Positions 31,006-34,393 of a stretch of 64,000 nucleotides of DNA are shown here, in pieces. The notes under the pieces were generated by a model, which was not told the DNA's origin, searched no databases, and saw nothing but the letters and a program-made list of their open reading frames with translations. Position 1 is the stretch's first letter. The number at the start of each line of letters is the position of its first letter. Location of the stretch: IMG/VR virus record IMGVR_UViG_3300027690_000141; one strand, given 5' to 3'. The stretch is from a virus. Made by a program: the position numbers and the translations under genes.

Positions 31006-32454
31006 TTATGCAGCCTTTTTCATCTTCAGGATCCCGTCTCTCTGCCGAGCAGCAATTGACGCCCTGTTCTGCAAATTAACGCACGCATGCAACACCGCAC
31101 GCTTCTCTTTTCCCTGTAATCCCCCGGCTTTGGTAATATACGCTCGCCGAATACCTTCAAAGGCTCCAATCTTTTTGTTCAGATCAACTGCTTCCGACGC
31201 CGCTCCTTTCATCTGTGCAATTCGCGTGTACCTCTCCTTGTAATTCTCTACCACCTTCCGCAGAACTCCCTCCTTCGAACCATCGCTCAGCTTCCGGTAC
31301 TTCTCCATATTGATCTTGCCGCCGCTCGCTACACCGCCAGGCGCCGAACCTCCCCATTTGCCCTTCCTCCCTTTATGCCCCCAGAAACCCGAGCCCGCGC
31401 CACCTTCTTCGATCCATTCAAAACCGAATTCGGCCATGATTGACCGGATAATTCCGCTGGTTAAAACCGTCTTTCCATTTCCTTTCTGTTCCCTCTTGGA
31501 CTTAGCCACCAACCCACCCAGCTTACCAAACAGCTCCGGGTACCCAGCCTCAATTTCGTCAAAACTCTTGGCTGAACGCGCCTTTGTCGGCGCGTATATC
31601 AGCTTTTCTCCGTATCCGATCACTTTTCCGTACTTTGTCGCTGGCGTGTTACGCCTTTTGATCATCCACACGGTCGAATATTTATCACTTTCCCTTATAT
31701 GGCCTCCCTTTGGCACATCTGTCTTCATCTCCCATGCTGGAAATCCAGAAACTTTGTAATTCTTTATCTCCGAACGTTTCACGACAACGGGGGACCAGAG
31801 GCCAGAATCAGCGCTTTTTACCAGCATTAAATGATTTTCTTTGCCATCTTTACCGACATGCCTCACATTCGCTGACAGATAAGCTCTCGTTTCCTTGCCT
31901 GGCGAATTCACAAGACTTCCCTCAATACTTCCCAATCCACCAATACCGGCTTTCTGCAGATCGTCAAACGACACTTTCGTTGTAACTCCAGCAGACCCAG
32001 GAGCAGACCCGCCCCACTTTCCGGCTCTACCCTTGTGCCCCCAATGGCCAGAACCGTCACCACCTTCCTTGAAACTTGATCCCTGCATCACAGCCGTTTC
32101 CTTCTTGATCTTGCTTTTCGGGGCACCCAGACCAGTCAATGCCGTCCCGCACTTGGAACATTTCATCGTGTTACACGGTACGCCTCTTTGATGCGGAACA
32201 GCTTTGCCATACTCACTGCACTTGGAATTCGGGCAGGCACAGTTTTCAGCCCCTCCTTTTCTTTCCCGACTTCCCCCCTTTCCCAAGGCTTCCGTCGCAG
32301 CCTGCACGATCTCTCTTACTAATGCTGATCTTGTCATCGATCTTCCCCCCTTTTTAATTGCAGCCCCCGCTATCTTCCTGATTTTTCTCATGTCCTTGTA
32401 AGAAATAGGGATTTTCAACTTGGCTTTCTTGGTAAACTCATCCTTCGATTTCAT
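31006..32454 (-). CDS. Putative internal head protein with Zn-ribbon and two GGxGSGxWGH motifs
   Basis: CxC..C..H.RG.PC...C..C; motifs at 32005-32067 and 31345-31407; very basic. Confidence 0.6.
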   Translation of the reverse strand: MKSKDEFTKKAKLKIPISYKDMRKIRKIAGAAIKKGGRSMTRSALVREIVQAATEALGKGGSRERKGGAENCACPNSKCSEYGKAVPHQRGVPCNTMKCSKCGTALTGLGAPKSKIKKETAVMQGSSFKEGGDGSGHWGHKGRAGKWGGSAPGSAGVTTKVSFDDLQKAGIGGLGSIEGSLVNSPGKETRAYLSANVRHVGKDGKENHLMLVKSADSGLWSPVVVKRSEIKNYKVSGFPAWEMKTDVPKGGHIRESDKYSTVWMIKRRNTPATKYGKVIGYGEKLIYAPTKARSAKSFDEIEAGYPELFGKLGGLVAKSKREQKGNGKTVLTSGIIRSIMAEFGFEWIEEGGAGSGFWGHKGRKGKWGGSAPGGVASGGKINMEKYRKLSDGSKEGVLRKVVENYKERYTRIAQMKGAASEAVDLNKKIGAFEGIRRAYITKAGGLQGKEKRAVLHACVNLQNRASIAARQRDGILKMKKAA

Positions 32455-33032
32455 TCCCAAGGCCCCCAGTGCTTGTTTTTCAAGGCCTTCTTGCTTGCTT
32501 CGGCCCTGTGATATTTCTTCAAGCCTTTCGGCAAATAGGCCCGATAATAGTCTTCTTTCTTGTAGAAATGGTTAAACACGCCGTCGTAAACCAGATCGCC
32601 TTTTTCACCCCAACCGTGGGCAAATGCCGTATCCATGAACGGTCCCACTGGCGGAAAAATCGTGCCATGAACCAATTTCCAGCCCAGATTATCCACAACC
32701 ATCCGGCCGGAAAATTCATAACACCGGCCTTCTCTGTTCTTGCCACCCGGCTTGATTACTCCTGCAGGATCTTCGACGCTCTTGGGCAAAATCGCCAGTC
32801 GCGCCAGCATTCCAACCTTTTTTCTGTATTCCAAACCCTTGCCTGCCAGCCCTAGATCTCTCTTGATATTTCTGAACTCTTTGCTCGCCCAATCACTGCC
32901 ACCCGGCGCTGAACCGCCTCTCTTGCCCTTTCTACCCTTATGTCCCCAATGGCCGGAGCCCGAGCCTCCTTCATCAAGACCACGAATTATACCGTCACTC
33001 AATTCTCTCACAAGCGCTTCCCGCCCGATCAT
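32451..33032 (-). CDS. Putative internal head protein with GGxGSGHWGH motif and papain/transglutaminase-like C-terminal domain
   Basis: GRCYE (Cys) ... LVHG ... AHGWGE (His) ... VYD (Asp) ... HWGPW. Confidence 0.55.
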   Translation of the reverse strand: MIGREALVRELSDGIIRGLDEGGSGSGHWGHKGRKGKRGGSAPGGSDWASKEFRNIKRDLGLAGKGLEYRKKVGMLARLAILPKSVEDPAGVIKPGGKNREGRCYEFSGRMVVDNLGWKLVHGTIFPPVGPFMDTAFAHGWGEKGDLVYDGVFNHFYKKEDYYRAYLPKGLKKYHRAEASKKALKNKHWGPWE

Positions 33033-34393
33033 TTGCCCACCCCAAGAACATTCAACTCCACAATACTCTTCCTGCCGTGCACACCTAACGTGTACTTTTT
33101 CTTCGTAAAATCCTTGACGCCATAATCTTCCAAGAATTTCCTCGCCTGCTTCTGCCCCATATCGAACATCTTCTGCAAAAACTTGTCGTACTTGTTGAAT
33201 TTCATATTCACGACGATCATGCTGTTCGCCGAATGCCCAATCGACTCAACCTCCCCGGCTAAAACACCGACCGTAAACTTCGGCGTCAAATACGAAATCT
33301 CCTTCACTGCCGCCTTTAAATCTCTCCTCAGGGGAGCACTGATGTTCGCCTTATCAATCTTTTTATGCAGGTTGTTTCTCAGCACATCGAATCTAGCCGT
33401 GTCTTTTTTCGCTGCAGCAACAGCCATTCCAGAGAGGATCGATCTTCCTCCGGCAATATACTGAAACATCGATGGCAGCTTCTCCTGGTGAAAAAGCGAA
33501 AGATTGTCGGACAGTCTCGTGGTCAGCGCCAGCGAATCAGAGATATCAAGATTTGTCGCATCATGCGTTCTTATTATGTTCAGCGCCCGCTGATATTCCT
33601 GCCTGGAAAATATCTTGCCTACATTCCACATATTTCTCTGATCCGCTGCGATTTTCATGCTGTAAAGCGGATGATCCTTTGACGCCAGGACTCCCCTGAG
33701 GCCTCCCTCTCTGACAAGCGGCACGGTGTAGCCCACGTCGTGATTTACCATGATAAAATTTCCCATCAAACGTTCGCGTCCGCTGATCCTTATCCCCTGA
33801 TCGCTCAGAACATCCATCATCTTCTTCTGGGTAAGCGTATTTTTCACGATATGTCGAATCCCGTGATCGGTGAACTGCTGCCTGTTCGATTCCATCTCCT
33901 GGTGAATCAGTTTCCGCACACTGTCAACGCACATGGCATTCATGTCTTTTGCCGAGACTCCTGCGAATTCTCCAACGTGATCTCCCAGCGTCTTCTCCGT
34001 GCAATTAATGTACTGGTGCATCAAATCCATTGTATCTCCGGCAAGATACGATCTATACGCTGACAATTCCTTCCTCATATTGCTGCCAATAATCTCGACG
34101 TTCTCCTTGCTCACCTTCCCCTTAACAGACCTCATCACCGGCTTCCTTCCTTTTATCTCTCCCAGGTTTTTCGCCATCTGACTGCTTATATCGCTATATT
34201 TCGCCTGCTGTATCTTCTGCGCCCGCGTTACTTTCTCATATTCGGCAGGCAACTTACCTGCAGGTCCTCCCGATACAGATCCGCCCTTTTTACCCTTTCT
34301 TCCCTTGTGCCCCCAGTGGCCGGAGCCAGGTCCACCTTCGAAAATATTCAGGACTTGCTCCGTTATCTCGCTAATCAATTCCGATCTTTCCAC
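33029..34393 (-). CDS. Putative internal head protein with GGPGSGHWGH motif and HD phosphohydrolase domain
   Basis: TDHGIRH ... NHDVGY ... DHP ... THD ... LSDNL; start refined to GTG after GGGAGG. Confidence 0.65.
   Translation of the reverse strand: MERSELISEITEQVLNIFEGGPGSGHWGHKGRKGKKGGSVSGGPAGKLPAEYEKVTRAQKIQQAKYSDISSQMAKNLGEIKGRKPVMRSVKGKVSKENVEIIGSNMRKELSAYRSYLAGDTMDLMHQYINCTEKTLGDHVGEFAGVSAKDMNAMCVDSVRKLIHQEMESNRQQFTDHGIRHIVKNTLTQKKMMDVLSDQGIRISGRERLMGNFIMVNHDVGYTVPLVREGGLRGVLASKDHPLYSMKIAADQRNMWNVGKIFSRQEYQRALNIIRTHDATNLDISDSLALTTRLSDNLSLFHQEKLPSMFQYIAGGRSILSGMAVAAAKKDTARFDVLRNNLHKKIDKANISAPLRRDLKAAVKEISYLTPKFTVGVLAGEVESIGHSANSMIVVNMKFNKYDKFLQKMFDMGQKQARKFLEDYGVKDFTKKKYTLGVHGRKSIVELNVLGVGK

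Follow-up and report, generated by a model that had tools for sequence, protein, structure and literature searches.

Proteins that a phage injects with its DNA are its first weapons in the cell, for example against restriction, against signalling of the cyclic oligonucleotide-based antiphage signalling system (CBASS) type or against host transcription, and recognising them from sequence has proved very difficult except in a handful of model phages. The locus described here raises the question of whether three of its genes encode such proteins. These genes, which we call A, B and C, follow one another on the minus strand of a 64,000-nucleotide stretch of viral DNA (IMG/VR record IMGVR_UViG_3300027690_000141; 'the window' hereafter means this whole stretch), which belongs to a 95.7-kb IMG/VR entry classed as a provirus. 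They lie in the head module and carry between them four copies of a glycine-rich motif, each directly preceded by hydrophobic-x-Glu. An earlier note on this DNA had read them as modular internal head proteins, with a targeting leader, cleavage after the glutamate, a Gly/His/Lys-rich tag and a variable effector domain. The finding behind that proposal is real and more general than the earlier note could see, as the motif recurs in thousands of protein clusters and the residue immediately before it varies with the protease that matures the phage head. That A, B and C are capsid-packaged cargo whose leader is cut after Glu by the prohead protease is a reading to which we give about an even chance.

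Four copies of one peptide in three adjacent genes

A six-frame translation of the window contains the core [WFY]GHxGRxG just four times, and a search of the whole 95.7-kb record with protein B returned the motif at the same four places only. All four copies are where the earlier note had put them, on the minus strand in three consecutive genes (Table 1), and in the window they take the form E-GGxGSG[HF]WGHKGRxGKxGGS. Any two copies are identical at 18-19 of 21 residues, their DNA being 67-78% identical, with 8-13 synonymous against 2-3 non-synonymous codon differences and a longest common exact run of 8-14 nt. Since the protein is kept while the DNA and its synonymous codons diverge, selection acts on the motif peptide, in agreement with the claim made before, and recent gene conversion among the four copies appears unlikely from their sequences. 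The tripeptides that had been reported in front of the copies can all be read in the translation, i.e. I-F-E before copy 1, L-D-E before copy 2, F-K-E before copy 3 and I-E-E before copy 4.

The motif as a domain prefix in many phages

The search with protein B found other proteins that share the motif alone, 15-45 residues from the N-terminus and followed by ADP-ribosyltransferase (ART), PI3/4-kinase-like or several HExxH domains. We built a motif profile from 29 segments and ran it against 1.84 billion representative proteins, obtaining 5,559 clusters at E <= 1e-3, of which 114 at E <= 1e-30. The top 150 clusters are proteins of 545-3,154 aa with 3-10 matched stretches each, at a median spacing of 230 residues. 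Their common form is GG[PAKE]GSG[NH][FHW]GH[AESK]GRPG[EKQ][VRI]GGS, i.e. GNFGHAGRPGEVGGS, with 13 of 20 positions essentially invariant, and the part that is general comes down to G-G-x-G-S-G-x-aromatic-G-H-x-G-R-x-G-x-x-G-G-S. The lysine-rich character that the earlier note had built into the tag is thus peculiar to the lineage of the window, Glu and Val being found elsewhere. Nor is the motif tied to T4-like phages; it is a pan-phage domain prefix of polyvalent or cargo proteins.

That it is a prefix and not a suffix follows from where it stands: among 155 proteins the first copy begins at a median of residue 41, while a median of 283 residues follows the last copy and fewer than 60 do so in just 4. 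Pfam domains in 47 of the motif-bearing giants include ADPrib_exo_Tox (10), ART-PolyVal (4) and Zeta_toxin (3), together with SprT and other zincins, MPTase-PolyVal, Fic, RadC, GNAT, 2H, MuF and portal domains. No Pfam, NCBIfam, PHROG or PDB sequence entry covers the motif. In the literature searched we did not find it described, the papers on polyvalent proteins (PMC5512222) and on MuF toxins (PMC5576092) being silent on it, which does not prove that it is undescribed. A tblastn search of 50,697 cultured-phage records with B and the giant P0012 gave no motif match, the low-complexity filter probably masking the motif. In bacterial genomes, a degenerate DNA pattern for the GRPG form hit the true motif at 7 of 80 loci, the rest being mostly high-GC chance matches, and these hits would say little about hosts.

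The residue before the motif and the maturation protease

The availability of 139 proteins with at least two copies (501 sites) allowed us to compare the residues in front of the motif within and between proteins. Identity at position -1 was 0.82 within a protein against 0.23 in the pooled sites, a value reached by 0 of 2000 shuffles. It was 0.32 against 0.13 at position -3 and 0.21 against 0.09 at position -2, and fell to background at positions -5 to -8 (0.08-0.11 against 0.07). The sites form classes according to the residue at -1, namely Lys, Leu/Ala (with Arg/Lys at -3), Arg (with a hydrophobic -3), Asn, Glu (with a hydrophobic -3), Phe, Asp and His, with Glu at 18 of 522 sites in the top matches. 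Such a pattern at -1 and -3 is what would be expected of a protease site with lineage-specific P1 and P3 residues.

We then asked which head-maturation protease accompanies each class, using 44 IMG/VR records with the motif. Pfam models of S78 and S49 find almost nothing in these records, and it is the PHROG models that detect head-maturation proteases. A strong match to phrog_530 ('head maturation protease') was present in 18 of the 20 Asp-class records and in 0 of the 24 others (Fisher 1.8e-10), the two exceptions being fragments about half complete; phrog_976 was confined to two Leu-class records. An S77 protease, the family of T4 gp21 and of the window's own enzyme, occurs in 1 of the 44, the window's relative G004, whose sites read I-A-E and I-L-E. 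In a further related phage, L346 (protease 56% and capsid protein 69% identical), L-K-E precedes the motif of the A homologue. Altogether, the 7 motif sites of the three S77 phages (window, G004 and L346) all have Glu at -1 and I, L or F at -3 and for this reason fit the reported cleavage preference of T4 gp21, (I/L)-x-E. The check proposed with the earlier note, i.e. whether the preceding residue co-varies with the protease family, therefore gave a positive answer.

In several Asp-class phages (G040, G045, G011, G014, G041, G028 and G032) the phrog_530 match crosses a single in-frame TAA into the next frame, which could reflect a protease gene followed by an in-frame scaffold gene, or read-through.

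Leaders and gene starts

A starts with GTG at 34393 behind GGGAGG, so that its leader VERSELISEI is read with Met as first residue, and the ATG start of B at 33032 shares an ATGA with the stop of A. For C there are two possible starts. ATG 32454 overlaps the stop of B in the same ATGA arrangement and corresponds to the public call of 482 aa; ATG 32337 has the stronger ribosome-binding site (AAGGGGGGAAG) and coincides with the start residue of a free-standing 83-aa homologue in L346. With the latter start, all three proteins open with R-[SE]-[EA]-L-[IV]-[SR]-E-[IL], a short N-terminal propeptide (RSELISEI, REALVREL, RSALVREI) common to otherwise unrelated sequences. The shared leader noticed before is therefore real, with the proviso that in C the segment MTRSALVREI is N-terminal only if translation begins at 32337, as the ribosome-binding site and the L346 homologue suggest.

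Leaders of Glu-class proteins are short, acidic and amphipathic. In an AlphaFold2 (AF2) model of A the leader forms a helix (residues 2-17, low confidence), the motif is disordered, with a predicted local distance difference test (pLDDT) score of ~30, and the domain is confident from residue 50. Indeed, every element of the modular layout that had been claimed can be seen in these proteins: a short amphipathic leader, hydrophobic-x-Glu, a Gly/His/Arg motif and a variable domain. As a part of the module, the leader holds for A, B and C, but a long leader is not universal, some proteins (P0013) having ~8 residues before the motif.

Two further observations concern the leaders of other proteins. 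The N-terminus of the MuF-like protein of the window, MIHEDLLSVIDEIEG, resembles the cargo leaders of G004, P0003 and P0004 (MIQEQIITTIDEIQ), a likeness that fits either a targeting role common to these proteins or leaders that often recombine. In L347, five consecutive cargo genes (5713-11326) have leaders that each end exactly in GLFEIL, and the first half of the motif is shortened. Because these proteins keep GLFEIL exactly, it is the junction, and not the motif alone, that is constant within a phage. The shortened motifs read GSGNFGH..., GRGNWGH... and KRGNWGH...

Domains behind the motif in A, B and C

The domain of A has 61 homologues (27-61% identity), and in an alignment of 36 sequences H177, H181, H218-D219, H241, H277 and D296 are invariant. 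Its AF2 model is helical (pLDDT 84) and fits an H...HD...H...H...D metal-binding pattern. The best PDB neighbours are the class I phosphodiesterases (PDEs) PDE5A and PDE2A, with weak scores (E 0.03; template modelling (TM) score 0.26-0.39), and language-model neighbours fall into the HD, SidE_PDE and PDEase families; Pfam HD had no match in A. Together, sequence and model point to an HD/PDE-like phosphohydrolase, which might act against nucleotide immune signals. Only ~10 of the 61 homologues carry the motif described here. In others the domain is preceded by different recurring tags, namely FNPNHxxDGRF/FNPYH, DxHPRDxxGRF, RPYTRVRRGKLERVKGY and APKGGVxIKGKxFxGGEF(IP) (P0163-P0214), which could be other kinds of delivery or junction peptide; in one homologue the domain is fused to MuF. 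As the same domain follows differing tags or MuF, delivery tag and enzyme are separate modules.

B has no Pfam, PHROG or NCBIfam match. Its structural neighbours in the Atlas include Peptidase_C93 and Transglut_core (TM 0.35-0.5), so that a transglutaminase or cysteine-peptidase-like fold of its Cys/His domain is possible, as a lead only. The related phage L346 has a homologue that is 53% identical.

In C, the leader is followed by a decayed remnant of the motif (GKGGSRERKGG), a four-Cys ribbon, the motif, a domain of ~200 aa, the motif again and a domain of ~110 aa. Both domains are orphans, just one partial homologue having been found elsewhere; the zinc ribbon is also matched in a 713-aa protein of the motif-bearing phage G001. 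In L346, the leader and ribbon of C (32095-32337) are a separate 83-aa gene (3003-3254; 69% identity). Since the ribbon gene is separate there, C of the window looks like a small gene fused to two motif-prefixed domains.

Close relatives carry different cargo in different slots: G004 has ART-PolyVal and topoisomerase IB between portal and MuF, and L346 has homologues of B and A upstream of MuF. This turnover resembles that of T-even internal protein genes.

Gene context in other phages

Motif genes usually lie near portal, MuF and protease genes. PF04233 (MuF) is detected in 29 of the 44 records. In 23 of 28 of these the nearest motif is on the same strand and no more than 6 kb away, and in 7 it lies downstream of the MuF domain by 600 nt or less. 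L036 and L038 have a lambda-type terminase and portal, with the motif genes in the head module. In L039, a Phage_portal_3 portal is followed by five consecutive motif genes with 15 motif copies, among them a gene for an Acb1/2H-like protein and the MuF gene itself. In L347, portal and MuF are followed by five cargo genes, one for a topoisomerase IB and one for an A homologue, and then by a gene that matches a protease weakly, decoration and capsid. The complete genome G049 reads terminase, portal, motif gene, MuF, two genes without assignment, head-maturation protease and capsid; that of G026, also complete, reads terminase, three motif genes, portal, a 1,266-aa protein (4 copies), a 569-aa protein (1 copy), head-maturation protease and capsid. 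The link to head-morphogenesis genes therefore extends to unrelated phages.

Some individual proteins in these regions deserve mention in their own right. The Acb1/2H-like protein of L039 (4916-6784; 622 aa) comes from a gene between those of portal and MuF; its Pfam matches to Acb1 and 2H-phosphoesterase are weak, and it is a candidate capsid-delivered enzyme against cyclic-nucleotide defence signals. The 713-aa protein in the head region of G001 (L024:13080-15221) has no family match; by eye, the stretch YPDGEKFKAKGTFWPTELGK...VRISMGF near its N-terminus resembles a prohead protease of the HK97 type, but the profile comparison was not significant. The S77 profile gave no significant match to two large unassigned proteins of the G001 head region. 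The portal protein of G004 (L029:12675-15446; 923 aa) aligns to that of the window in two blocks, 10-357 and 752-921, and the insertion of ~395 aa between them is possibly an intein or an added domain.

The head module of the window

Every gene of the head stretch is on the minus strand in the list of open reading frames, and the module is T4-like, with a gp20-type portal, an S77 protease and a gp23-type capsid protein. The protease has its S77 domain in residues 1-185, fused to a long Glu/Lys-rich helical tail that is possibly a scaffold. His78 and Ser131 are invariant in an alignment with its relatives (10 sequences) and would be the expected catalytic pair, which, together with the Pfam match (Table 1), bears out the gp21-like protease of the earlier note. 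The order of the genes is also as described there, with A, B and C between the MuF-like gene and the protease gene, except that a fourth gene (29789-30451) intervenes and the name MuF lacks a Pfam match. The intervening gene has homologues at the same place in G004 (48% identity) and L346 (50%) and no family match in Pfam, PHROG or NCBIfam. For the protein adjoining the portal, PF04233 was not detected in the window and a comparison with the canonical MuF profile was negative; the label 'MuF-like' is based on its position and on language-model neighbours, 32 of 100 Atlas neighbour clusters carrying PF04233.

Directly after the capsid gene of the window lie a family-9 glycosyltransferase (PF01075) and a sulfotransferase (PF13469) (25644-27367). 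A family-9 glycosyltransferase comes after the capsid gene in L346 as well, so the pairing is conserved.

Table 1. Coordinates of the head-module genes and of the sequence elements in A, B and C
Feature	Position	Strand	Description
Terminase large subunit	38125-39978	-	
Portal protein, T4 gp20 type	35743-37308	-	PF07230, 1e-50
MuF-like head protein adjoining portal	34413-35645	-	sole family match phrog_24776
Gene A	33029-34393	-	454 aa, GTG start; leader, motif, HD/phosphodiesterase-like domain
Leader of A	34337-34393	-	VERSELISEITEQVLNIFE, ends I-F-E
Motif copy 1, gene A	34277-34339	-	NIFE, then GGPGSGHWGHKGRKGKKGGS
Gene B	32451-33032	-	193 aa; leader, motif, Cys/His domain
Leader of B	32973-33032	-	MIGREALVRELSDGIIRGLD, begins MIGREALVREL
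Motif copy 2, gene B	32910-32972	-	GLDE, then GGSGSGHWGHKGRKGKRGGS
Gene C	31006-32337	-	443 aa from ATG 32337; two internal motifs
Four-Cys zinc ribbon of C	32149-32241	-	CxC...C / C...CxxC, from translation
Motif copy 3, gene C, internal	32005-32067	-	SFKE, then GGDGSGHWGHKGRAGKWGGS
Motif copy 4, gene C, internal	31345-31407	-	WIEE, then GGAGSGFWGHKGRKGKWGGS
Conserved head-module gene between C and protease	29789-30451	-	role unassigned
Prohead protease, S77/gp21-type	28572-29804	-	PF03420, 2e-15; phrog_207, 3e-36
Major capsid protein, T4 gp23 type	27379-28560	-	PF07068 (Gp23), 4e-62

Discussion

From the computed sequence architecture, spread, gene context and co-variation with the protease we infer targeting, cleavage, packaging and ejection of A, B and C in the following form. 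The short acidic amphipathic leader would carry each protein into the assembling prohead, where the gp21-type protease would then cut after the Glu of hydrophobic-x-Glu; the folded domains would remain inside and reach the host together with the DNA. Delivered in this way would be the HD/phosphodiesterase-like enzyme of A, the possible cysteine-peptidase-like domain of B and the two orphan domains of C, which would be split at its two internal junctions in the manner of a small polyprotein. Behind the proposed cut stand 20 residues (GGxGSGxWGHxGRxGxxGGS), a disordered prefix common to thousands of phage cargo domains, which we take to be a generic handle because it is the same whichever protease family the phage has. 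This prefix would present the junction to the protease or hold the domain to a conserved head component or to DNA, candidate roles being display of the junction to assemblin-fold proteases, binding of MuF, portal or DNA, and an aid to exit through the tail. The broader proposal, in which the motif is a universal portable cargo handle recognised by the assemblin-fold protease or by the portal/MuF vertex, so that any domain behind it would be loaded into the capsid and then released through a residue at -1 tuned to the protease of each phage, is in our judgement possible but rather doubtful. A complex prediction for the S77 domain (1-190) with B (1-50) gave a score of 0.00, which counts neither way.

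Several observations weigh against cleavage of packaged cargo as a sufficient explanation. A cleavage site needs no 20 conserved residues downstream, so the motif must do more than mark one. No protease was recognised in phages of the Lys or Arg class, Glu also stands at -1 where no S77 protease is detectable (L036-L038, G043), and 15 more distant S77 phages showed the motif nowhere within 10 kb of their protease gene. Only a few independent events stand behind the association between the residue at -1 and the protease, which is to be read at the level of clades: MuF and protease families are common to the Asp-class phages, which are probably one lineage, and the three S77 phages are related to each other. 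As to gene context, G001 has its eight copies in seven genes, of which two, at 6 kb and 54 kb, are remote from the head genes, and in G033 a motif gene lies beside recombination genes. Furthermore, the variable positions within the motif (7, 8, 16 and 17) are also uniform within a protein (0.61-0.88), and because they are as uniform as position -1, concerted evolution of the whole unit is an alternative source of the pattern.

This last point would be explained if the motif were an adaptor that is never cut, a flexible recognised linker that tethers the domains to a conserved head component (MuF, the portal or the inner surface of the capsid) or to packaged DNA, the protein being packaged whole like beads on a string and the lineage-specific residue at -1 being a mark of concerted evolution of the repeat unit and not of a protease site. 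The retention of 20 residues in phages with unrelated proteases suggests a partner common to all of them, and the frequent presence of MuF close to the motif, as well as the MuF of L039 that itself carries it, would suit such a partner; the G-R-P-G of the motif core also recalls an AT-hook. However, the residues at -1 are chemically unrelated (K, R, L/A, D, E, N, F, H), whereas the variation inside the motif is conservative (N/H, F/W/H), and the -1/-3 pattern in the S77 phages is that of gp21 specificity. If one tether were enough, a copy before every domain would be superfluous, and the basic charge is not general, the common form having Glu and Val in place of the window's Lys and Arg/Lys/Trp. 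We consider an uncut adaptor unlikely on these grounds. Still less probable is cutting of the junctions by a peptidase carried by the cargo, a zincin or here perhaps the Cys/His domain of B, in the head or after injection, which would free active effectors in the host. Motif proteins often contain zincin-like domains, with HExxH in P0003, P0005, P0008 and P0010, an ATLF-like domain in G001, and SprT, MPTase-PolyVal, M48 and DUF6782 in others; the possible cysteine-peptidase-like fold of B is kept in L346, and processing of polyvalent proteins by zincins has been proposed (Iyer et al. 2017, PMC5512222). Yet G004 has the same junctions without a homologue of B and without a zincin in its two motif genes, the class of the residue at -1 follows the head-maturation protease family and not the presence of zincins, and the fold call for B is weak (TM <0.5).

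The proteins might also not be virion cargo at all, the motif being a disordered linker of late cytoplasmic multi-enzyme proteins and the head module a permissive insertion site. Some motif genes do lie among replication or other non-head genes, no experimental virion data were found for any motif protein, and the motif region is predicted to be disordered. Against this stand the repeated placement between portal/MuF and protease/capsid in unrelated lineages, the fusion of motif proteins to MuF and portal domains and the near-invariance of 13 of 20 positions, which exceeds what a passive linker needs, and we regard this explanation as very improbable.

Two further explanations of the junction were rejected. 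A double-glycine bacteriocin leader has a formal likeness, with a helical leader before GG, but the genes belong to a head operon, and neither a C39 peptidase nor an ABC exporter is present. Self-cleavage at Asn-Gly or Asp-Gly leaves the Lys, Arg, Leu and Glu classes unexplained.

If cargo delivery is correct, the motif together with a protease-matched residue at -1 would provide a simple sequence rule for capsid cargo, one that singles out possible injected effectors in no fewer than 5,559 protein clusters, the majority without an assigned function. HD/PDE-like, Acb1/2H-like, ART, topoisomerase IB and kinase-like domains are among the candidates behind the motif. It would account as well for the division of giant polyvalent proteins into functional parts. 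On the practical side, foreign proteins could be brought into phage heads with a naturally occurring tag, a use already made of the T4 targeting sequence. Were the motif indeed a universal handle, the virion-delivered effector set of thousands of uncultured phages would become readable from sequence, and phage heads could be filled with chosen proteins by design. Whatever its function, a family model of the motif would be worthwhile, since it is at present without annotation in the databases.

Comparison with known systems

By analogy only, the cargo-loading peptides of encapsulins are comparable, being short, Gly-rich, disordered and portable peptides that bring unrelated enzymes into an HK97-fold shell. 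Encapsulins differ in lacking a portal, a terminase and a maturation protease, their peptides are retained and bound to the shell, and there is no likeness in sequence. Closer to phage heads are the MuF polymorphic toxins (Jamet et al. 2017, PMC5576092), in which the MuF head protein is joined to a toxin or enzyme domain that varies. MuF fusions also occur among the homologues of A and among the motif proteins, whereas A, B and C of the window are encoded apart from the MuF-like gene; the text of that paper contains nothing on a conserved motif, linker or cleavage.

Polyvalent proteins carry two to fifteen effector domains per polypeptide, for which processing by zincins has been proposed (PMC5512222). 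The main home of the motif is in giants of this kind, with ART-PolyVal, ADPrib_exo_Tox, zeta toxin, zincins, Fic, RadC, GNAT, 2H and MuF domains, whose genes adjoin those of portal and MuF and whose delivery with the DNA has been proposed. Motif proteins of this kind have 3-10 domains, whereas the window splits the system into three small genes, with one domain each in A and B and a zinc ribbon plus two domains in C. The published account, moreover, has no glycine-rich or linker motif and invokes zincin processing, not prohead-protease sites matched to the residue at -1.

Ejection proteins of the phiKZ/SPN3US type are internal to the head and have N-terminal propeptides that a gp21-related protease cuts after Glu (PMC5694885). 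The propeptides of these giant phages are cut at (S/A/G)-x-Glu, the gp21-related sites being given as A/S-x-E, and paralogues share identical N-termini (PMC5694885). They differ from the proteins described here in that the propeptides are often >100 residues long, that no shared Gly/His/Arg motif has been reported and that the phages are of another type.

In T4, a conserved capsid-targeting propeptide of 10-20 residues on the internal proteins and on the ART Alt is removed by gp21 (PMC3012670, PMC5694885). Like T4 IPI-III and Alt, the window proteins are diverse small effectors in appearance, with a short N-terminal propeptide ending in hydrophobic-x-Glu, in a phage that has a gp21-family protease and gp20/gp23-type head genes; the cargo set varies between close relatives, and G004 tags an ADP-ribosyltransferase, as Alt is tagged in T4. 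Unlike in T4, the cargo genes of the window are translationally coupled within the head operon and C has internal junctions, and nothing is conserved downstream of the cut at T4 sites, whereas the 20 residues that follow the junction here are shared across different head types. The window proteins have no sequence similarity to T4 proteins or to the T4 targeting sequence, and a comparison of A, B and C with IPI-III and Alt through Pfam, PHROG and NCBIfam gave no match; since they lack this homology, the likeness is one of mechanism and not of descent. The T4 paradigm would nevertheless be the most economical account, extended to a modular system that operates across head types with its site matched to the resident protease. 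T4-type internal proteins and polyvalent proteins were already known, and the new element is apparently the pan-phage junction motif, so far unnamed, with a preceding residue that tracks the maturation protease.

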